Shown here: positions 719 through 32,000 of the stretch, in pieces | Position numbering within the stretch: the stretch's first letter is position 1 | Layout: each line of letters starts with the position of its first letter | Source: Promethearchaeota archaeon | Lineage (GTDB): Archaea > Asgardarchaeota > Lokiarchaeia > Sigyniarchaeales > Promethearchaeaceae | Assembly (NCBI GenBank): GCA_016933055.1 | Contig: JAFGBS010000004.1 | Location: 90,001 to 122,000 of the forward strand | Direction of reading: 5' to 3' | DNA length: 32,000 nt | The notes under the pieces: generated by a model | Databases searched by the model: none | What the model was told of the DNA's origin: nothing | The model's input: the letters and a program-made list of their open reading frames with translations, nothing else | Made by a program: the position numbers and the translations under genes

Positions 719-1012
719 AACTCTTCTTTGAATGAGTGGAGCCGTACCTATAGCGGTAAGCAATCTGAGATATTTGGACGTTCAAATACGATCCGTTACT
801 ATCGTCGATGAGTAGTGAACTTAGAACGGCAAGTAGCCCAAAGCTCTTCTTGTAGGAGGGGGGTAATTGGGGTTGCACCAATCCGATCAGGCCCGGGAGG
901 GAGCAATCGTAAGTGCACTATTTTGTGCGACTAATGATTTGCTATGAGACCAGTACCAGTATTGGATTTGGACTGAAAAATATCGAGGATTGGGTCACTT
1001 TGTTAAGGAGTT
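719..1012 (+). ncRNA. ffs: Signal recognition particle (7S) RNA; ends approximate
   Basis: Helix 8 CGAU-CAGGCCC-GGGA-GGGAGCA-AUCG (SRP54-binding loop, GNRA tetraloop); helix 6 CCCAA..CUCUUCUU-GUAG-GAGGGGGG..UUGGG; UGCAC/GUGCA stem; helix 5 pairings UUAG/CUAA and CGAUCC/GGAUUG; terminal pairings AGUG/CACU and AACUCUU/AGGAGUU. Confidence 0.88.
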
Positions 1013-1578
1013 AGAGGGATAAAGGGAAATAAGAATTCAAGCATATTATAAAAAGCGGTTACTACTCCTCTACCCTGGTTAGCAATCGTAGGAATTAATT
1101 TGAATTTAAGAAATTTAGATAATTGAAAATGGGAGATAATTTGCTCCTCTGATACAATACTTGGTAAATCTCTTTTATTTAAACAAACAACAATTGGGAT
1201 TTGATAAAAATTTTCTCCATAATATAGAAAAAGCTCATTCCATGACCGTGTATTATCTAAGAGAAATGCATATTGAGAATCTGCAACAAAAATAATACCA
1301 TCTAAATTCGTTACTGTGGCAGGTCTTGTACTAGCATAAAAGTCTTGACCCGTGGCAGAATACAATAAGATTTTTAGTTTCCAATCATTTCCCGTGATTG
1401 TGATACTCCCAAAATCAAAAACTAAAGTTCTTCCGGTAGTAGTTTCGATGGATCGTAAATTTTGTTCTTGTCCATAATAATTCATTAGATATTTCAAGGA
1501 GGTTGTTTTACCGGACATCGCGGGTCCAAAATATACAATCTTTATTTGGATTATCTTTGTACTTGAGTATATTATCAT
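1003..1578 (-). CDS. MglA-like small GTPase (likely start ATG 1578)
   Basis: P-loop GPAMSGKTT, switch I TTGRTLVFDF, G3 SATGQ, G4 NKRD, G5-like TIANQGRGV; GGGG SD-like element upstream of ATG 1578. Confidence 0.9.
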   Translation of the reverse strand: MIIYSSTKIIQIKIVYFGPAMSGKTTSLKYLMNYYGQEQNLRSIETTTGRTLVFDFGSITITGNDWKLKILLYSATGQDFYASTRPATVTNLDGIIFVADSQYAFLLDNTRSWNELFLYYGENFYQIPIVVCLNKRDLPSIVSEEQIISHFQLSKFLKFKLIPTIANQGRGVVTAFYNMLEFLFPFIPLTP

Positions 1579-1582
1579 TTTT

Positions 1583-2512
1583 TTATCCCCACAAGCTTTC
1601 AATTAAGTCCTCTTTATATTTCATGGGTTCTGTCTCAATTTCTCCTGTAAAAATTTCGCCCCACTCCGCTTTAATAAATTGAGTCAATCGACTAAAGGAG
1701 GCATTAGAATAGGATACTGTATCTAAAATTGTCTGATCACTCAGTTCCGTCTTCACATTTAACGAATTCAAAATCGATATTTTATTTAATATAGAAAATA
1801 CTCTTCGAGCAGCATTATAAAATTCCAGAATTTGGATCTTGAAAATATTTCGTTTTAGATTCTGCTCTTCAAAGCTAAAATCTAATAGTTCCTCCCGTAA
1901 TTCTTTAGAAAAATTTTTGAGTAGAGACAATCTTTGTTCAAAAATTCGGCGCATTTTCGTAATCGAATTATCAACAAATGTAATTGCTTTAGAATATATC
2001 AATTTTTCAAATTTTAGGTTTGAATTTTTAAATTTACTACCCACCATATTAACAACAATTTCATCATTAGAATTTTCAATTAACAAGAAGTTTTGGATCT
2101 TCTTCTGTACCATCTGTATTATGAAACTTAATCTTGCATTAAATCCGTCCTTATTGACTTTGGATTCATCTGACATAATATGATAACATAGAATCCAAGA
2201 TTTGAAGGAATTAAACAAGTGTAAAGCCTTGTGAAGAGCATCATTAGGGCACACAACTATATACCGGTTGGTATCATAATTAATTTCTTCCTCTTGTAAT
2301 AGCATATCCAATTCATTATTGGAAATAAAATCAGTATAAAAGATCAATTTCGTTCGAAAACTCATAATATCCGCTAAACTGTTAGCAAAAAATTCAACAT
2401 CCTCTTTGTCCGTTCCCGCAATTAGAACGGGGAGGCGATCTAGAAGACATCTCAACACAATAGAGAATTTCTCCTCTCCAATGTCAAATACTGCGTCATC
2501 AATCGATTTCAT
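1583..2512 (-). CDS. Hypothetical protein, possible cDENN/dDENN-like fold
   Basis: 309-aa ORF tightly packed between roadblock and GTPase genes; LRCLLDRLPVLIAGTDKEDVEFFANSLADIMSF resembles the start of the cDENN domain; product is inference. Confidence 0.5.
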   Translation of the reverse strand: MKSIDDAVFDIGEEKFSIVLRCLLDRLPVLIAGTDKEDVEFFANSLADIMSFRTKLIFYTDFISNNELDMLLQEEEINYDTNRYIVVCPNDALHKALHLFNSFKSWILCYHIMSDESKVNKDGFNARLSFIIQMVQKKIQNFLLIENSNDEIVVNMVGSKFKNSNLKFEKLIYSKAITFVDNSITKMRRIFEQRLSLLKNFSKELREELLDFSFEEQNLKRNIFKIQILEFYNAARRVFSILNKISILNSLNVKTELSDQTILDTVSYSNASFSRLTQFIKAEWGEIFTGEIETEPMKYKEDLIESLWG

Positions 2513-2522
2513 ACAATTTAAC

Positions 2523-3566
2523 CTACTTCAACATGATACCGTTAATTATGTGTTTTAATTCAAAGGAATTAACGGGATTTTCAATTACTTGAGCCTCTTT
2601 TACGATTTTGTTCAATACAATTAAAAATCTAGGGAGTATAAGGCGTAACAATCCCAATTTTTGTCTTCCCTTTTTGACCGTAAGGGTAAAAATCCCATCC
2701 CCAAGTGGCACTGTAAATTGATAGTAACTCATACATTCCAATAATATAGAGGAAATTTTCATTTTTTTTAATAACCAAGCACACCGGTTTGCCGTAGAGT
2801 ACAACGCATAAGACATTGCTGCTTCATGTTCAAAATCCAACTCAGAAAAATTCCCCTCATTCAAGTAAGTAGAGACAATAAACCCTCCTGAAACGGTCAA
2901 ACTTGCTCGCGTCATATCAAGAACTGTTGAAGTGAGTTTTTGGTATGCTTGATCCATTTTAGCAAGGGTATTCTCTGAAAAACAGAAAGAGGTTGTGTTT
3001 ATCCGAAGAGTTTCTTTTGTATCTTCTTTAATACTGAAGGATTCTAGGAGATGGGCAATTTGTTTATCATCATATCGTCGTAAAGGGGGTTTGAATGATT
3101 CTCCCGTAAGTATCAATGATTTTTTTATCTCTCGTAAACTTTCCCGGGTTTGTAAGAAAACCCCTCCGAGATTGACTTTTGGTGCAGCTGTAATCGCAAT
3201 AAAAAATTCTTCATTTTTATTATCTATGTCTTGTCGAATCAAGATGCGATCAATAGGATCATCCATGGAATTTTTTAAAGGAGCGAGAAGGATTTTAGAG
3301 GATTTACCTTCGAGTAATATGTATTTTAATTCATCAGGATGAAGATGTAATCCTAAATTATAAATCGCAGAACTGGCAGAAGAAATATTGAAGATCTCGT
3401 CTCTTGATAACCATACTCCGGATGATTGGATGGGATTACCATCCCGTTGGGTTAACACTGCATTTTCTACACCGTTAACTTCTTTTATTTTTTCCAAACT
3501 TATTTTTATCTGATCCGCTGGCATGTATAATCCTTTGAATGAATCTAATAGGTTCTTCCACAGCAT
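2523..3566 (-). CDS. Tandem roadblock/LC7 (MglB-like) domain protein
   Basis: Domain 1 GVENAVLTQRDGNPIQS...ISSASSAIYNLG...YILLEGKSSKILL...NLGGVFLQTR; domain 2 TRASLTVSGGFIVS...EAAMSYALYSTA...SILLEC...KLGLLRLIL. Confidence 0.85.
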   Translation of the reverse strand: MLWKNLLDSFKGLYMPADQIKISLEKIKEVNGVENAVLTQRDGNPIQSSGVWLSRDEIFNISSASSAIYNLGLHLHPDELKYILLEGKSSKILLAPLKNSMDDPIDRILIRQDIDNKNEEFFIAITAAPKVNLGGVFLQTRESLREIKKSLILTGESFKPPLRRYDDKQIAHLLESFSIKEDTKETLRINTTSFCFSENTLAKMDQAYQKLTSTVLDMTRASLTVSGGFIVSTYLNEGNFSELDFEHEAAMSYALYSTANRCAWLLKKMKISSILLECMSYYQFTVPLGDGIFTLTVKKGRQKLGLLRLILPRFLIVLNKIVKEAQVIENPVNSFELKHIINGIMLK

Positions 3567-3938: not shown

Positions 3939-5431
<1,493 letters not shown>

Positions 5432-7735: not shown

Positions 7736-8524
7736 ATGTATATACTAGATATCTTAGTGAGAATAGAGGATGATATAACAATGGGTGAACTTGCAATACG
7801 ATGCCGAATTTGTGATGTGATTAAAGGAAGATACCTATCCCAGGAAAAAGCAATAGAATCAATATTTGGAAAATTAACCCGAGTTCGGGTAGTCGCAAAT
7901 GTGATTGATATAATTCAAGAGGATATTCAAAACAATGAAAACTTACTAAAATATTCATCAGATGCAACTAAAATTTCTTTTTTAATTGATGATGGAACAT
8001 CTCAAATATGGATTACTGTCCAAAAGTGGAGTACAGGGATTTTATCCCGAATCAAGAAAGGAGATATTATTCAATTAATTGGTAAAGTAAAATTCCACTC
8101 CCATAGTAGCAACGAAATTATTCCTATACATTTCAAGAAATTAGGGAATCCAAATCATGAACTGTATCATGAATTAGAACTTATTTTTCACTTGAAAAAA
8201 TTTGGGAAAACTAAGATCCGTCCATCCTCAACTCCTAATCAAACAACCCAAGAAACGCCCCAAATAACCTCCTCTTCTATAAAAGATACCAATTTCGATT
8301 TATCTGAATTTAATATTGACTTAGAAGAAAATTCCAATCAAGATGAGTTAAAAGAGGAAATTCTCAGAATTCTCCAACAATCTGATAAAGGTGATGGTGT
8401 GGATGTGACTTGTCTGTATGATCATCTGCCAGTAAAAGATGCAGTGGTTGATGAGCTTTTAGATAGGCTTGTGTATTCTTCATTGATCCAACGAATGGGA
8501 AATAATCGGTATAAACTGATATAA
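7736..8524 (+). CDS. Replication protein A 32-kDa-like subunit (OB fold, linker, winged helix)
   Basis: RVRVVANV...FLIDDGTSQI...GDIIQLIGKV OB fold; S/T/Q/P-rich linker; C-terminal wH (EILRILQQSDKGDGVD...LLDRLVYSSLIQRMGNNRYKL). Confidence 0.8.
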   Translation: MYILDILVRIEDDITMGELAIRCRICDVIKGRYLSQEKAIESIFGKLTRVRVVANVIDIIQEDIQNNENLLKYSSDATKISFLIDDGTSQIWITVQKWSTGILSRIKKGDIIQLIGKVKFHSHSSNEIIPIHFKKLGNPNHELYHELELIFHLKKFGKTKIRPSSTPNQTTQETPQITSSSIKDTNFDLSEFNIDLEENSNQDELKEEILRILQQSDKGDGVDVTCLYDHLPVKDAVVDELLDRLVYSSLIQRMGNNRYKLI

Positions 8525-8601
8525 AATTGTTAATTTTTTTCCACAGAACTTTAAACTTATCCCGAATTAAATTTTTGTAATAAAACAATGAGAGTCTATC
8601 T

Positions 8602-9018
8602 ATGGACGAAAAAGATTATTATAAATTATTAGATGTGGGAATAGAACAGATCCCAGAGGATGTGAAGACTACGGAACGTTGGGAAATCCCCACAGTTGAT
8701 ATTGAATATGAAGGAAAAACCACTATTATAAAGAATTGGAGAAAAATAATCGAGCAAATACACAGAGATGAAAAACATTTATTCAAACAGATTTGCAAAG
8801 AATTAGGGGCTGCGGGTGATATCCAACACTCCTCGGGTCGCGCTGTTTTAAAGAGTATCATTAAAAAATCTTCATTAAATAAACAAATCGCTAACTATTG
8901 TAAAGAATATGTGATTTGTAGTACTTGTGGGAAACCAGATACAGATATTATTAAAGATGGTAGAAATCATGTTCTTAAATGCCAAGCATGCGGAACCAGA
9001 CGAATCATCAAATTATAG
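8602..9018 (+). CDS. eif2b: Translation initiation factor 2 beta subunit (aIF2beta)
   Basis: RWEIP...EGKTTIIKNW...KELGAAG...YVICSTCGKPDT...LKCQACG zinc ribbon. Confidence 0.95.
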   Translation: MDEKDYYKLLDVGIEQIPEDVKTTERWEIPTVDIEYEGKTTIIKNWRKIIEQIHRDEKHLFKQICKELGAAGDIQHSSGRAVLKSIIKKSSLNKQIANYCKEYVICSTCGKPDTDIIKDGRNHVLKCQACGTRRIIKL

Positions 9019-9023
9019 GAACA

Positions 9024-9308
9024 ATGAGAGTGTATTATAAAAAGCACAAAAAGCAACAATATGAGGTAATTGCGGTTTGTGATGAGGATGTGTTGGGAAA
9101 ATCCATCGGAAGTCAAAAGATCAATGAGTTCTTTTACAAAGGAGAATTAATAGACATACAAACTGCTGTGCAAGTCTTGAAAACAGCTCAAAATTTTAAC
9201 ATTGCTGGGAAACATATCATCAATGCGTGTATTGAGCATAGAATAATTTCTGAATATGCCGTCATCACAATCAATAGTATTCCTATTGCAATGAAATTTC
9301 TCTTATAG
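9024..9308 (+). CDS. DUF424 family protein (start ATG 9024)
   Basis: VIAVCDEDVLGK...FFYKGE...NIAGKHII...IP motif pattern; usual neighbour of aIF2beta and NMD3. Confidence 0.85.
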   Translation: MRVYYKKHKKQQYEVIAVCDEDVLGKSIGSQKINEFFYKGELIDIQTAVQVLKTAQNFNIAGKHIINACIEHRIISEYAVITINSIPIAMKFLL

Positions 9309-9322
9309 GAAGGATAACAAAC

Positions 9323-10240
9323 TTGAAATATTTTTGCCCCGTGTGTGGTGCGACAATCTCCCCCGACGAACTAGATTTTTATAAAACCCATTTTGTATGC
9401 AAAAGGTGTCATCTAGTCAAATCCAATGAACTTTCTCCAAAAAAACAATATACACTCTATTTATGCTCAATGTGTTTAGCCTACATATTTGATAAGATGC
9501 CAAAAAATGCCCAATGGAAATTTATTGAGACTCAAGATCTAAATGAAGCAATATCTCAAATTTTAAAACGGGAATTAACGGATATATGGCAAGAAGAGTA
9601 TGATACTAAATATGATATCACTTTTCCCATAATAAATGAAATTCCATCTAAAATTACTGTTCATGTGACAAATCCCCATAAGAATGCTGAAACAAATGAA
9701 ATTACTCTATTAATCAAAAGTTCTGTATGTAAAAATTGTAATAAAATGCTGAGCCGAAGATTTGATGCGGTTATTCAACTCCGAACTATTAAACTTAAAT
9801 CAGAGAAGCCAGAAACGATATTAGAGCCTTTACTTACCGAGATTATTGATTTTACGGAAGCAATACAATCCAAGAATCCCGATCAGTTTATTTCCGACAT
9901 CGATACATTTTCTCATGGGTTCGATCTGAAATTGAGTAACAAAGCGATGATGAATGCTATTACATCGTATCTACTCCATAAGTACCCCTTCATTGTAAAA
10001 ACATCAAAAAAATTGATGGGAAAAAATCCAACTACAGGTGGGAATCTGTATCGTTCATATGTGTTATTGCGTTATCTTCCATTCAGAACTAATACTCAAA
10101 TCCGGATTAAGAATAACTATTATAGCATCCAAAAAATCCATTCTAATCAAATTACCCTAGAAAATATAATCGATCACAAACAACAAACTCGCAAATTCGA
10201 TTATTTTGAAAAAAAATTAATTGAGCGAACCGAGGTCTAA
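9323..10240 (+). CDS. nmd3: NMD3-family ribosome maturation factor
   Basis: CPVCG/CKRC/CSMC/CKNC zinc motifs, FDAVIQLR, GFDLKL, SKKLMG...RSYVLLR. Confidence 0.9.
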   Translation: MKYFCPVCGATISPDELDFYKTHFVCKRCHLVKSNELSPKKQYTLYLCSMCLAYIFDKMPKNAQWKFIETQDLNEAISQILKRELTDIWQEEYDTKYDITFPIINEIPSKITVHVTNPHKNAETNEITLLIKSSVCKNCNKMLSRRFDAVIQLRTIKLKSEKPETILEPLLTEIIDFTEAIQSKNPDQFISDIDTFSHGFDLKLSNKAMMNAITSYLLHKYPFIVKTSKKLMGKNPTTGGNLYRSYVLLRYLPFRTNTQIRIKNNYYSIQKIHSNQITLENIIDHKQQTRKFDYFEKKLIERTEV

Positions 10241-10247
10241 CAGCGAT

Positions 10248-11051
10248 ATGACAAGGAATCAAGAAAGAAAAATTAATGAATTGGACGAAATGGTCGATAA
10301 GCAGCGAATTAAAGAAAAAAATAGTGAAGACAAGGATGCCTATCAACGGGTTTTTGACGCACGTACAATTTCTACCTTAAGGAAATTACTTAATACTGGG
10401 GTCATATCCAAATTAGTGGGGATTATATCACAAGGAAAAGAAGCTAATGTATATTTCGCCTATGGTGCTCAACAAGAGTCGTTGGCAATAAAAATCTATA
10501 AAATCGACATCCAAAGCGCCAGATGGATGAAAAATTACATAAAAGGGGATCCAAGGTTCAAAAAAATCGGATCAAATCCGGATCAAATCATATTTATGTG
10601 GTGCCAAAAGGAATTTCGGAACCTAAAACAGATCGATAATGCAGATTTACCGTGTCCGATACCACTTCATTTTAAAAATAATGTGTTGGTAATGACTTTC
10701 ATCGGTAACGCAGATGGGACCCCCGCTAGAAAACTGAAAGAATGTGTATCTTTATTTCAGAACCCTGCAAAAGAATTAGAGACTTCTCTAGATTATATTG
10801 ATAGATTGTATAGAACCGCACATCTAGTCCATGCTGATTTAAGTGAGTTTAATATTTTATATCATGAGTCAAAACAAATTCTTATAGATGTATCTCAAGC
10901 TGTTTCAATAGCACACCCTAAAGCAAAACAATATTTAGCTCGAGATATTAGGAATATTATCAATTTTTACTCACGTATGGATGTTCCCATTCCTGATCCA
11001 ATGGAAATATATACAAATATCATAGAAAAAGGCCATAAAAGTGATGAATAA
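10248..11051 (+). CDS. rio1: RIO1-family serine kinase (ATG 10248; track start TTG 10221)
   Basis: ISQGKEANVY, AIKIYK, YIKGDPRF, KEFRNL, LVHADLSEFNIL, IDVSQAV. Confidence 0.95.
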   Translation: MTRNQERKINELDEMVDKQRIKEKNSEDKDAYQRVFDARTISTLRKLLNTGVISKLVGIISQGKEANVYFAYGAQQESLAIKIYKIDIQSARWMKNYIKGDPRFKKIGSNPDQIIFMWCQKEFRNLKQIDNADLPCPIPLHFKNNVLVMTFIGNADGTPARKLKECVSLFQNPAKELETSLDYIDRLYRTAHLVHADLSEFNILYHESKQILIDVSQAVSIAHPKAKQYLARDIRNIINFYSRMDVPIPDPMEIYTNIIEKGHKSDE

Positions 11052-11670
11052 AGATCGTGTTGCTGTATTGATCGGAAAAAATGGTATTACCAAGAAAAAA
11101 ATTCAATTTTTGACTAATACACAGATTGAAGTCGATAGTACAACGGGAGAATATTCCATCATCCCTGTAGAAGATCAAGAGGACGACACTCCCGAAATGC
11201 AAAATATATTAGATCAACTTGATATAACTCCTGAATCATTGAATATCTATAAAGAATCCCCTAATTTTGGAATGTGGACTGCGAAAAAAATCATCGAAGC
11301 TATTAATATGGGATTCAAACCTGAAAAAGCATTTAAACTGATTAATCAAGACTGTATTTTCGAAATCATTTCTCTTGAGGATATTTTAGGAAATTCTCAG
11401 AAAACAATTAAACGCATCAAGGGAAGACTCATTGGGGAAAAAGGAATCATGCGGAAATCGATCGAAAAATATACAAACGCTCATATCTCAGTATATCAAA
11501 ACCAAATTGGTTTTATTGCTGATTTTGATTCTTTGAAAATCGCCCAAAAAGCAGTGGATATGATCATAGAAGGACTTCCGCATAAAACAGTCTTAGCATT
11601 TTTACAAAAACGATATCGAGAGAAAAAAGAAAAAGAGTTCCATGAAACCTGGAAACCCACGTTTGATTAA
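11041..11670 (+). CDS. dim2: KH-domain pre-rRNA processing protein Dim2/Pno1
   Basis: Two KH GxxG loops (LIGKNG, RLIGEKG); directly follows rio1 as in the conserved archaeal cluster. Confidence 0.9.
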   Translation: MMNKDRVAVLIGKNGITKKKIQFLTNTQIEVDSTTGEYSIIPVEDQEDDTPEMQNILDQLDITPESLNIYKESPNFGMWTAKKIIEAINMGFKPEKAFKLINQDCIFEIISLEDILGNSQKTIKRIKGRLIGEKGIMRKSIEKYTNAHISVYQNQIGFIADFDSLKIAQKAVDMIIEGLPHKTVLAFLQKRYREKKEKEFHETWKPTFD

Positions 11671-12821
11671 ACGAAACTTTCTTCAGTATTTTTCTTTTTT
11701 CTTGATTGACTTTCCATTTCTGGTAAAGAAAACAACTCGTCTGAAAGTTTTGGTTTAGGTTGTGGTAAATTCCTGATAATCGGAGATGAAGGATACCGTG
11801 TGTGATTTATTGATGACCCTAAAACTTGAGGTGATTTTATTCCCGTAATTAATAGCATAACACGGATGTAATTATGGATTTTCGAATCTACTCGTGCCCC
11901 CCATATCACCATTGCATTTTTATCCATTTTGGTGGAAATATATTCTGATACCTTGTTTGCCTCCGTTAAAGTCATATCATTTCCTCCAGTAACATGGATT
12001 AATGCACCTTTCGCTCCACTTATGTCGATTTCTAACAATGGGGAACTAAGGGCATCTTGAATCGCTTCTTCTACCCTATTTCCTTTTTCAGTATGGGATT
12101 CTCCAATTCCGATAAATGCAACTCCTCCTGTAGACAGAATCGTTCGGACATCTGCATAATCAAGATTAATCAGAGAAGGTAAACTAACTGTTTCCGTGAT
12201 TCCCTTCACCATAGTGGCTAAAACCTCATCCGCTAATGAAAAAGCTTCAATTATAGGTAAATCCGGCGCAATTTCTAGTAATTTATTGTTATCTAATACT
12301 ACTACCGTGTCTGTAAATCTCCGTAAATTCTTTAGTCCTTCTTGTGCTTTGGGTAATCGACCCATCTCTGTTTTAAAAGGTAATGTAACGACTCCTACCA
12401 CCATTGCACCGTTCAATTTAGCGATTTCAGCAACTATAGGAGAGCTACCTGTACCAGTTCCACCTCCAAGTCCGCATGTGATAAACACCAAATCTGCATC
12501 ATTTAGAATCGTATCCAATTCATTTCGTGATTCTTCTGCCGCCGCACGTCCTATTTCAGGTTGACCTCCTGCGCCTAATCCCCTTGTAAGGGTTTTTCCA
12601 ATTAAAATGCGTTTATCACTGAGTTTAGAATCTAAATGTTGCTGATCTGTGTTAATAGAGATACATATAGCTCCTAAAATTCCTATTCGCATCAGTCTAT
12701 CTACAGTATTATTTCCGGCACCTCCCGCACCTACTATTACAATCTTAGCCTGTCCTATTGTTCCCCTATTTTCAGGGGGTTTTTGGACATGCTTACGTGC
12801 ATTACGTATCAGCGATTCCAT
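11667..12821 (-). CDS. ftsZ: Cell division protein FtsZ
   Basis: GAGGAGNN, GLGAG, tubulin signature GGGTGTG, T7 loop NLDYAD, WGA motif. Confidence 0.97.
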   Translation of the reverse strand: MESLIRNARKHVQKPPENRGTIGQAKIVIVGAGGAGNNTVDRLMRIGILGAICISINTDQQHLDSKLSDKRILIGKTLTRGLGAGGQPEIGRAAAEESRNELDTILNDADLVFITCGLGGGTGTGSSPIVAEIAKLNGAMVVGVVTLPFKTEMGRLPKAQEGLKNLRRFTDTVVVLDNNKLLEIAPDLPIIEAFSLADEVLATMVKGITETVSLPSLINLDYADVRTILSTGGVAFIGIGESHTEKGNRVEEAIQDALSSPLLEIDISGAKGALIHVTGGNDMTLTEANKVSEYISTKMDKNAMVIWGARVDSKIHNYIRVMLLITGIKSPQVLGSSINHTRYPSSPIIRNLPQPKPKLSDELFSLPEMESQSRKKKNTEESFV

Positions 12822-13113: not shown

Positions 13114-13567
13114 CTTTTGTTCTACTTAACACTTCATAGTTTAAATCGTAAAAAGTAGGACCCCAAGTAAATTTCGACAAGAGAAATTCAGCTTGATTTT
13201 CATGGCCAATTATAAAAAGGGCTGCAGCTAAAGCTTCTACTGATGACAATTTTTCCCATCTTCCATAATTAACGCTATTAGCAGCAAGCAATTTAGGTAA
13301 TTTTCTACCAGTGTGGAAATCTTTAAACACCTTTTCAACTAGTTTCCAGGAACAATCAATAGCTACTAGCCCATAAGTTTCAATTTGTGATTTATCTTCT
13401 ATACTTAGGATTTTTGGGGAAAACGGATCTAAAATTATCGCCTTTTTTGGTAAAAATTTGAGTTTAGGTACCAGCTTAACTAAATTGAACTTTCTTAGTT
13501 TTAAACTGGTACACTTTTTGGGATCACACTGCCCATAGTGAACTACAAATAATTTTGGATCTATCAT
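13079..13567 (-). CDS. tsr3: 16S rRNA aminocarboxypropyltransferase Tsr3 (likely start ATG 13567)
   Basis: QCDPKKCTSLKL, LDPFS, DCSW, RKLPKLLAANSVNYG, LSSVEALAAAL, FTWGPTF. Confidence 0.95.
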   Translation of the reverse strand: MIDPKLFVVHYGQCDPKKCTSLKLRKFNLVKLVPKLKFLPKKAIILDPFSPKILSIEDKSQIETYGLVAIDCSWKLVEKVFKDFHTGRKLPKLLAANSVNYGRWEKLSSVEALAAALFIIGHENQAEFLLSKFTWGPTFYDLNYEVLSRTKVQREGFEPPNY

Positions 13568-14562
13568 GAAAATTTCGCTGTACATAAGGAATTTATACTC
13601 TTAATAAATAATTCCGTTGTTTGTTCTGATCCAACTACTTTTTGTATGGAATGAACAATGTTTCGGATCTCTCCTAAAACGGGAATCGCACCATATGTTA
13701 AAGGAAATAAAGCGATAAACGTGATATCTTGGACGGCTGTGGCACCAGTACTTGTATCGGTGAATTGGAATTTACTCGAAGGACAAGCAATTATGCCATA
13801 ATAACTATCCCTATTTTTCGCCGAAAGACAAACATAAGACAACAAAGATCCCATTTTTAGTGAACCAGCTTCTTCCACCATTTTCTGGAAAGCCACATTG
13901 GTATTTGCACTAAAGGCTTCTACAGAAATTGGTAAATTTACAAGATTTTTATTTCTATGGTCAAATGTTAATCCGCTGGGAGCTACCAGACTATAGACTG
14001 CTAATACGGGATTTTTGACACTATCAAGAATATCATTAATCAAAATGATTTTATTTCTATCCTGTGGTTGACTGTTACCATAAGTTGTAAGCGATACTTC
14101 ACTACCCATTCCAAATAAATAGATCGCACTACGTACACTATTGCTAAATATCTCCATGTTTTGAGTCACATTTCTTGTACCGAAATAATTATCGATCTCT
14201 CGTCGTAAATGATAAATACAGGACCCAATGGTATCCGCATTCAATGGCCATTCTTTATTGTAATCATGCACAATTGTTAGCAGAGTCTGGCTTATTCGAA
14301 TGGTTATTAAACAAATTTTTTCAAAAAAGGAAAATGTAATGATCTGATTTTCCATTTGTAAATCACTCCAATTTTCATCACTCGATGAAAACGCAGCTGC
14401 AGATACGGATGTGATTGTGTTCGGATCAAGTTCCAAATCAGTATTTCTCCCAATACGTGCAATAGATAAACCACTTTCATCCGATAGAAGGACCATTAAC
14501 GTTGCATCCGAAGATCTCAAAATACTCGATAAATGTTTTACTAGCGATTCCCGTACACTCAT
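13564..14562 (-). CDS. Roadblock/LC7-like protein, probably two domains
   Basis: VLLSDESGLSIA...ITSVSAAAFSSS and YSLVAPSGLTFD...VEAFSANTNVAF patterns; GAGGTG SD; ATGA overlap with tsr3. Confidence 0.65.
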   Translation of the reverse strand: MSVRESLVKHLSSILRSSDATLMVLLSDESGLSIARIGRNTDLELDPNTITSVSAAAFSSSDENWSDLQMENQIITFSFFEKICLITIRISQTLLTIVHDYNKEWPLNADTIGSCIYHLRREIDNYFGTRNVTQNMEIFSNSVRSAIYLFGMGSEVSLTTYGNSQPQDRNKIILINDILDSVKNPVLAVYSLVAPSGLTFDHRNKNLVNLPISVEAFSANTNVAFQKMVEEAGSLKMGSLLSYVCLSAKNRDSYYGIIACPSSKFQFTDTSTGATAVQDITFIALFPLTYGAIPVLGEIRNIVHSIQKVVGSEQTTELFIKSINSLCTAKFS

Positions 14563-30160: not shown

Positions 30161-32000
30161 CTATTTTTCAATCTGATTTACTAATCGATCCAATTCTTCA
30201 TCCAAGTCTGCAATTTTAAATTGATCCACTTTCATCTCAAAAGAAGCATCTTGGGAATATTTACTTGGAGTTACAGTGCCAATCACCACTAAGTCAATCA
30301 TGTAGAGATTATCAATAATTTCTTTCTCAAAATCTGGATAGTCTTGATCTTGCCTTTTCACATGGATAGTTAATGCATCTTGATGAATCAAATTCTCTGC
30401 GTCTTCTCCAAAAAACGTTAAGGGTATTGTTCCAGTGTTATCTTCCAAAATAGAGGAAAGTATCATCCTATGTTCTGACTTTATGGGCCCTTCTTCACAA
30501 GTACAATTCGTTTTCTCAAATGAGATATTTTTCAAACATTTTGCGCAGGCTTCATAAGTGAAAATACGATTCACCTTGGAAATATGACCTTTTACTTCAT
30601 ATTTACCTTCTTTATCAATAGTAGCAATTGGTTGATAAGATCCTGAAAATTGTAAAGGTTTTGAAGATTGACTCGGTGAATAAAAATCCGATACTATATG
30701 CGGCTCGGTTAAAGTAAAATCAACATTTCTTTCTAATGCTGAATAAGTTCCGAATGACGCTGTGGTAGCTCCCATTCTACTCTTTTTAATTCTAGCACGT
30801 GTAACTCTAATTGATTCTCCCTCACTAAGGTCTGCAAATTCTTCAGCTTGATCTTCCCAAAATGAGAGTTGAATTGCTCCTGTATTATCACTGACATGAA
30901 TAGAAAACACTTTTAGACTTTTACCCTCAGATGTTGTAATGGTCTTTAAAGGATCGGGGATTTGGGTTATCTGTCCTTCAAAAGAATACATTCCCTCTTT
31001 TTCTAATAGTTCTTCAATTGGTTTTATAGAATTAATAAACGAGGAATGATCCTTATTTTCTATAGATAATAGGGAGGATGGACGAAACACGAGTTCTGAT
31101 CGGTCTTTATCTTGATAATATGGCTGCACACTTAAATTTTCCAGCTTAATTTTATTCCCAATATCCGTATTTTCTAATTTTTCAGTATCTTTTCCCCAGA
31201 ACACAATAAAAATGGATCCTGTATGGTCTTGAAGAAGTATTCTTTGTACTTTTCCCTCCTCTCCTCCTTCGCGTGCAAATTTACGGACATCACTTTTCAT
31301 TCCTATCTCTCCAATAACTGATGCGCGATTAAATGAAGAATCAATATCTCCTATAGGAACTATTTCAAGAGGTTTAGCTTGTTTCTTAACAGACAATTTC
31401 GATCCATTTTTAAAGGTCAATTCCAGTTTTTCAGGATCATTATATTGAGGTTTCGCTATGAGGTTTTGTATTAACACAGTAGCCCCTTCTTGAACATTCT
31501 CCAAAATTTCTGTATCATTTTCCCAAAAAACTACGGGAATACTTCCCGAATCATCTTGAATAATTATTCTTTGAACATTTAAATCCTCATTAGTTGCTTT
31601 TTTTTTTACTGTACGTTTTTCAAATATTCGATCAATAACTCCCTCAACTGTAACCATATTTTTATTGATAGATGTATTAGGTGTGATCTCAGAAATTTTA
31701 ACTTTAAATTGTGAATGATCTAGGACAGGATATTCTGAAGGATCAACATCTAATGGTGAAATTTCAACATCTCCTCGTAAACCTACATGAATTTCTAAAT
31801 TTTGATCTCGATTACGTCTAATTTGTCCATTTAAAACTCGAACCAAAGAATTGATCTTAAAAGAATCATCTAGAATTCGATTTGCCCGTTCATCCCATAA
31901 TAGTACTTTTATTTGTTTTTTTGAATCATATATCCAAAACGAGCTAAATTGACCTTGTTCTCCACTTTTTCTTTTAAAGGTTCGAATATCAGAAAAATCT
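30161..32000 (-). CDS. Replication protein A large subunit-like (multiple OB folds plus C-terminal Zn-OB); 5' end lies beyond the window
   Basis: Frame stays open from 31846 to the window edge (DFSDIRTFKRKSGEQGQF...VLLWDE); at least five OB repeats (D.SG.I..vFW); CAKC...CTC zinc site. Confidence 0.9.
   Translation of the reverse strand, partial: DFSDIRTFKRKSGEQGQFSSFWIYDSKKQIKVLLWDERANRILDDSFKINSLVRVLNGQIRRNRDQNLEIHVGLRGDVEISPLDVDPSEYPVLDHSQFKVKISEITPNTSINKNMVTVEGVIDRIFEKRTVKKKATNEDLNVQRIIIQDDSGSIPVVFWENDTEILENVQEGATVLIQNLIAKPQYNDPEKLELTFKNGSKLSVKKQAKPLEIVPIGDIDSSFNRASVIGEIGMKSDVRKFAREGGEEGKVQRILLQDHTGSIFIVFWGKDTEKLENTDIGNKIKLENLSVQPYYQDKDRSELVFRPSSLLSIENKDHSSFINSIKPIEELLEKEGMYSFEGQITQIPDPLKTITTSEGKSLKVFSIHVSDNTGAIQLSFWEDQAEEFADLSEGESIRVTRARIKKSRMGATTASFGTYSALERNVDFTLTEPHIVSDFYSPSQSSKPLQFSGSYQPIATIDKEGKYEVKGHISKVNRIFTYEACAKCLKNISFEKTNCTCEEGPIKSEHRMILSSILEDNTGTIPLTFFGEDAENLIHQDALTIHVKRQDQDYPDFEKEIIDNLYMIDLVVIGTVTPSKYSQDASFEMKVDQFKIADLDEELDRLVNQIEK

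Follow-up and report, generated by a model that had tools for sequence, protein, structure and literature searches.

A longin-less protein with a predicted DENN fold in a conserved roadblock-GTPase operon of Asgard archaea

The middle gene in a tight run of three genes from a Lokiarchaeon (Asgard archaeon) is predicted to encode a DENN-fold protein that comprises cDENN and dDENN without a longin domain. A 347-aa gene lies upstream and the gene of a 191-aa GTPase downstream (Table 1; the window is the whole 32,000-nt stretch of DNA that was analysed). The strict order of roadblock, DENN, and GTPase genes supports a shared function. The longin-less DENN protein probably belongs, as the third component, to a conserved small-GTPase switch of Asgard archaea, in which it would act as a non-catalytic accessory regulator of the GTPase or of the roadblock-GTPase complex.

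Table 1. Features of the window, with positions counted from its first nucleotide
Feature	Position	Strand	Remarks
Putative 173-aa gene product downstream of the GTPase	81-602	minus	V4R-like by eye; Pfam only DUF2507, E 0.068
Putative MglA-family small GTPase	1003..1578	minus	191 aa from ATG at 1578; 4 nt past the DENN stop
Predicted stand-alone DENN-fold protein	1583..2512	minus	309 aa, ATG start, one terminal stop
Predicted tandem roadblock protein	2523..3566	minus	347 aa; 10 nt between its end and the DENN start
Archaeal 16S rRNA gene	3939-5429	plus	oriented away from the operon; distance to the roadblock start about 370 nt
332-aa protein with N-terminal LAMTOR3/MP1-like roadblock	13564-14562	minus	MAPKK1_Int E 4.5e-5; C-terminal part unassigned
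Ordinary neighbours: RPA32-like OB protein, aIF2-beta, NMD3, RIO kinase, KH/Pno1-like, FtsZ, RPA70-like	7736-11670, 11667-12821, 30161-31999	plus, minus, minus	

A conserved gene with a predicted DENN fold

The DENN gene had 28 homologues at 33-84% identity, of which the named ones belong to Promethearchaeota/Lokiarchaeota, as well as 77 cluster representatives, and was matched in 162 of the 301 genomes of the Asgard phylum by single-sequence search, mostly in one copy. It is thus a genuine, conserved gene, and a chance open reading frame is ruled out. The family profile matched 170 of the 301 genomes, the additional matches being mostly weak, and orthologues are 269-306 aa long. Hydropathy analysis of the 309-aa protein found no transmembrane segment. 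Scans for sigma-70 promoters and terminators stayed at chance level; sigma-70 models do not fit archaea.

The AlphaFold2 model, built on a 54-sequence alignment (pLDDT 87, pTM 0.84), has an alpha/beta cDENN core at about residues 13-160, with strands at 29-33, 54-58, 84-88, 106-111, 142-147, and 152-157, a helical half from residue 167 onwards that includes dDENN (residues 167-290), and a C-terminal helix (residues 296-308). The N-terminal motif and the strand pair quoted in the sequence-only reading were located at residues 20-52 and at residues 141-148 and 150-155, respectively, and the layout described there agrees with the model, in which beta/alpha alternation extends to residue 138 and is followed by the strand pair (142-147/152-157) and an all-helical part (167-308).

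A search with the model against 48,161 PDB representatives returned DENN proteins in all of the six best places (Z 12.3-9.6, 186-208 residues aligned). DENND10 ranked highest (Z 12.3, rmsd 4.2, 186 residues aligned, model residues 5-289), followed by two folliculin structures (Z 11.8 and 11.7, rmsd 3.7, 187 residues aligned, model residues 1-286), DENND1A (Z 10.2), SMCR8 (Z 10.0), and C9orf72 (Z 9.6); DENND1B reached Z 10.4 in a second comparison. The matched span covers model residues ~1-296, and the matched ranges of the partners are confined to cDENN and dDENN (C9orf72 199-468, SMCR8 708-913), for which limits of 199-464 and 701-916, respectively, have been published (PMC8336837). Whole-model alignments reach residues 283-296 and thereby cross the helical dDENN that follows cDENN in C9orf72 (to 468) and SMCR8 (to 913). 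In every structural match the start of cDENN pairs with model residues 1-5, so that no space remains for a longin domain. The protein accordingly has the cDENN alpha/beta sandwich with its minimal P-loop-like topology, as judged by the model and its structural matches, and lacks an N-terminal uDENN/longin in the same chain, so that it is not a tripartite DENN module. About 190 of the 309 residues align to DENN structures, at 7-14% identity, and the ~100 unaligned residues lie for the most part in helices of greater length and in the conserved C-terminal helix.

Remote homology searches gave further links to DENN families. The Atlas feature search returned one cluster with a C9orf72-like annotation on 12% of its members (0.95) and one with Folliculin_C on 22% (0.91), followed by SPA, Avl9, and DENND11. 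Folliculin_C of Pfam weakly matched three of the 54 family members (best E 4.8e-4). The query itself stayed below all curated cut-offs and matched none of the Pfam families DENN, Folliculin_C, C9orf72-like, or Avl9, and its own genome had no Pfam DENN-type match above cut-off. Apart from weak ATPases, an unnamed Thorarchaeota cluster (TM 0.81) was all that the Atlas shape search found. Sequence searches of Pfam, NCBIfam, and PDB with the query or the profile yielded nothing beyond chance-level matches (Csx1_CARF, RimJ, ferritin).

The model, the structural matches, the Atlas features, and the profile link described below thus bear out what had been judged by eye in the sequence-only reading, namely a cDENN and dDENN without uDENN/longin. 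That reading had set beforehand a DENN match across about residues 15-290 as its test, and the DENND10 and folliculin alignments span this range. Of the comparisons it had named, the structural ones with DENND1B, folliculin, and C9orf72 gave matches; Foldseek against PDB listed folliculin at rank 36 and found nothing at E<=0.001, and Pfam had no match for the query.

Some of these searches also touched ATPases. If the protein were an inactivated P-loop ATPase (secretion ATPase/AAA+) and no DENN homologue, it would resemble DENN through a common P-loop-like core; the top Foldseek rows were indeed AAA+, PilT, and VirB11 proteins (best E 1.9e-3, TM about 0.28, not significant), the secretion ATPases GspE and FlaI followed directly below, and tied with, the weakest DENN matches in the structure search (Z 9.5 and 9.1), and T2SSE proteins appeared in the Atlas shape search at TM under 0.4. 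Such matches are to be expected because cDENN itself has the minimal topology of a P-loop NTPase, though none of the nucleotide-binding residues (PMC3521125). All six top structural matches are DENN proteins, the feature search, the weak Pfam matches, and the profile link all indicate DENN families and not ATPases, and the Walker A pattern that marks P-loop ATPases occurs in none of 54 and none of 44 family members. The reading as a dead ATPase is largely refuted and very improbable.

A Trp-Gly motif closes the conserved C-terminal helix (residues 296-309, window positions 1586-1627), outside the region that can be aligned to most DENN structures. W308 is invariant in the family alignment A4 (44 sequences), and the helix is a candidate binding motif.

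Neighbouring genes: a tandem roadblock and an MglA-type GTPase

The predicted model of the 347-aa neighbour contains two Roadblock/MglB-like domains at about residues 16-155 and 194-330, and Pfam Robl_LC7 matched the protein with E 1e-7. Domain 2 resembles MglB (3t1r, Z 16.1, rmsd 2.0) and domain 1 a Thorarchaeota roadblock (7f8m, Z 12.3), and the two halves are related to each other as an internal repeat (hhalign E 5e-5). Longin-type proteins such as Mon1-Ccz1, whose fold is related, scored lower (Z about 11) than MglB and roadblock proteins (16.1-12.3), and by its model the neighbour reads as two MglB-like roadblocks and not as a longin.

The GTPase profile matched MglA with E 1.5e-42 and its best Rab with E 2e-13. 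R50, T51 (Arg53/Thr54 of MglA), and Q78 are invariant, R50 aligns with the catalytic Arg53 of MglA, and the protein has the switch I Arg-Thr and the G3 xxGQ without Asp that characterize MglA. From these sequence features the operon GTPase is assigned as MglA-type and not 'Rab-like'. In bacteria, MglB binds MglA 2:1 as an indirect GAP, and catalysis uses Arg53 of MglA itself with none from MglB (PMC11016934; PMC8336837). Since an MglB dimer acts on one MglA without giving a catalytic residue, the tandem roadblock would be its natural single-chain counterpart.

Distribution and gene order

Strong DENN matches were found in 10 of the 30 families sampled and not in the remaining ones searched. 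These ten families are the ten that hold the operon GTPase at E<=1e-45, bar one borderline GTPase match. Depositor labels (Hermod-, Hod-, and Thorarchaeota on L073, L078, L081, L084, L085, L103, and L129) were unsuitable for defining the family range because at least L081 shares coordinates with genome G049, which is placed in the same taxonomic order as the window. In all 50 loci chosen by the DENN gene and in 75 of the 80 loci chosen by the GTPase, the genes were arranged as tandem roadblock, DENN, GTPase; these counts include related genomes and are hence not independent. The median gap between the roadblock and DENN genes is 13 nt. The operon occurs in the cultured strains P. syntrophicum MK-D1 (DSAG12_00673-00675; roadblock QEE14853.1, DENN QEE14854.1 (DSAG12_00674), GTPase QEE14855.1) and Ca. 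L. ossiferum (DENN UYP46417.1), and in Ca. Harpocratesius and Thorarchaeota.

The five exceptions among the 80 GTPase-chosen loci were two contig ends and three roadblock-GTPase pairs without DENN. Six further such pairs were found (L140-L144 and L148, L143 being the same stretch as L119), which brings the two-gene loci to nine, including L072, L080, and L119; some genomes hold both a two-gene locus and the full three-gene operon. DENN is thus not obligatory for such switches. Conversely, genome G138 carries the DENN gene alone (L145:3454-4350), upstream of a pyruvate formate lyase-like gene, and its roadblock and GTPase genes are adjacent on another contig. The two-gene loci and this lone DENN gene identify the roadblock-GTPase pair as the core and DENN as an added component, and the roadblock protein, occurring beside the GTPase without DENN, is best read as the GTPase's own MglB-like regulator. 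Five genomes without detectable DENN also had no detectable tandem roadblock. In the two-gene loci of family f14, a class-III aminotransferase gene comes next after the tandem roadblock and MglA-type GTPase genes.

Many Loki loci stop 1.5-2.5 kb upstream of the DENN gene. In the window the operon is flanked on this side by the 16S rRNA gene, and no 23S rRNA gene was found within the window. Loci ending in this way may explain genomes in which the operon was not detected. On the other side, the 173-aa gene had no counterpart beside the operon in 49 other loci and is therefore not a conserved part of it. The 332-aa roadblock-like protein encoded elsewhere in the window, between thermosome and Tsr3-like/FtsZ genes, was not matched by the DENN profile.

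Comparison with known systems

An operon of this make-up is already known, as it was predicted in print in 2020. Liu et al. 2020 (10.1101/2020.10.19.343400) describe a predicted operon 'conserved in most Asgard archaea' with a LAMTOR1-like Roadblock, a Rab-like GTPase, and DENN, for which a GEF function was proposed. Judged by composition and breadth, the DENN gene of the window belongs to this operon: the three components are the same, their genes are adjacent, co-oriented, and conserved across Asgard lineages, and the proposed role is likewise regulation of a GTPase. In contrast to the labels given there, the GTPase studied here is assigned to the MglA family, the roadblock protein appears to be a tandem of MglB-like domains, and DENN lacks longin. 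The breadth also differs from that statement, with strong matches unevenly distributed across the phylum (10 of the 30 families). In the later literature, DENN domains are named among the features of Asgard archaea and prokaryotic DENN folds are considered common; two structure-based surveys of Asgard archaea make no mention of DENN, and our literature searches found no experimental study of the roadblock-DENN-GTPase operon and nothing for the MK-D1 accessions.

The predicted cDENN and dDENN fold is shared with the C-terminal domain of folliculin (PF16692), DENND10, DENND1A/B, C9orf72, and SMCR8, whereas the N-terminal longin of eukaryotic DENN modules, which in FLCN and SMCR8 bears the GAP arginine (PMC8336837), is missing from the Lokiarchaeon protein. 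The MglA-family GTPase with its intrinsic arginine and the MglB-like roadblock pair recall the bacterial MglA/MglB polarity switch of Myxococcus and Thermus; unlike there, a single chain contains both roadblocks, and a DENN gene separates the roadblock gene from the GTPase gene.

Longer Asgard FLCN-like proteins with longin and DENN (PMC12290439; Liu et al. 2020) are picked up by the profile of the stand-alone DENN family at their residues 155-280. A comparison of the two profiles (95%, E 2.5e-8, 55 columns) shows that both groups have in common the helix-strand-helix with which cDENN begins. The longer proteins differ from it in their length of 326-397 aa with an N-terminal part of 150-210 residues, a probable longin by weak Pfam matches. 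They show weak matches to Folliculin, DENN, C9orf72-like, or Folliculin_C, one of their clusters bears the name Hodarchaeales, and no roadblock or GTPase gene was found within about 1.5 kb of their genes. A 356-aa protein with a probable longin and DENN start (L056:1174-2244, minus strand) has a 4Fe-4S dicluster domain at its C-terminus (Fer4_9 E 6e-8) and, judging by these domain matches, may represent a redox-linked DENN architecture.

Proposed mechanism and alternative readings

By analogy to bacterial MglA/MglB, the tandem roadblock would form a single-chain MglB dimer that binds one GTPase and acts as an indirect GAP by positioning R50 of the GTPase. The DENN protein, if it behaves like its eukaryotic relatives, would dock on the GTPase or on the roadblock-GTPase complex as a non-catalytic regulator, and would most likely promote or gate nucleotide exchange, or position the switch in the cell. 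The computed basis of this scheme consists of the predicted fold, the missing longin, the strict order of the genes in the operon, and an MglA-type GTPase that brings its own catalytic arginine. A complex prediction of roadblock, GTPase, and DENN proteins, run without controls, scored 0.00 and was counted neither for nor against contact.

It is plausible that the roadblock neighbour supplies the missing uDENN module. According to Zhang et al. 2012, longin derived from MglB-like roadblocks, of which it is a circularly permuted relative, and was later fused with DENN and dDENN (PMC3521125), so that the idea of a split DENN has a basis. The gene order fits as well, the roadblock gene lying immediately upstream as in the N-to-C order of tripartite DENN, and in the longer Asgard proteins a probable longin precedes a related DENN start. 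The strict form of this idea, a constitutive DENN-roadblock pair in which one roadblock domain replaces uDENN/longin and two chains constitute a tripartite DENN GEF for the operon GTPase, is nevertheless unlikely. The two MglB-like roadblocks of the neighbour seem to pair with each other in the model, the roadblock profile did not match the longer Asgard DENN proteins, and no roadblock-DENN fusion was seen among proteins of 649-2000 aa, which counts as weak evidence. In addition, the roadblock gene adjoins the GTPase gene in the nine loci without DENN, and its primary partner thus looks like the GTPase. The operon might instead keep a pre-fusion state of DENN, with a free cDENN and dDENN completing a roadblock (proto-longin) platform on the MglA-type GTPase and acting as GEF, a possibility that we entertain tentatively. 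A DENN protein that is co-expressed and yet works downstream or sideways, as an effector of MglA in its GTP-bound form or by regulating other small GTPases, would have many candidate partners, given 54 domain matches to the GTPase profile in the window's genome. One genome retains DENN away from the roadblock-GTPase pair, and in Myxococcus both GAP and GEF activity are already provided by the MglA/MglB pair. The near-invariant position of DENN between both genes across ten families, however, favours the operon GTPase as its partner, and we consider an effector or sideways role quite doubtful.

Implications

In eukaryotes, DENN proteins such as folliculin, C9orf72, and DENND1 have a central role in regulating membrane traffic. 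That the operon exists was known before; what can be added to the literature is its biochemistry, together with corrected labels for the GTPase (MglA-type), the roadblock protein (tandem), and DENN (no longin). The three MK-D1 genes (QEE14853.1-QEE14855.1) can be cloned, and the two-gene roadblock-GTPase operons provide a natural control for the contribution of DENN to the switch, of which we regard DENN as a probable accessory regulator. If the pre-fusion reading were true, which could be tested in two cultured Asgard strains, the operon would contain a working prokaryotic DENN regulator, in keeping with the fusion that Zhang et al. 2012 proposed. With a longin-less DENN retained alongside an MglB-like platform and an MglA-type GTPase, the operon offers a natural test of the way in which the tripartite module originated, and the finding bears on the origin of eukaryotic GTPase regulators.
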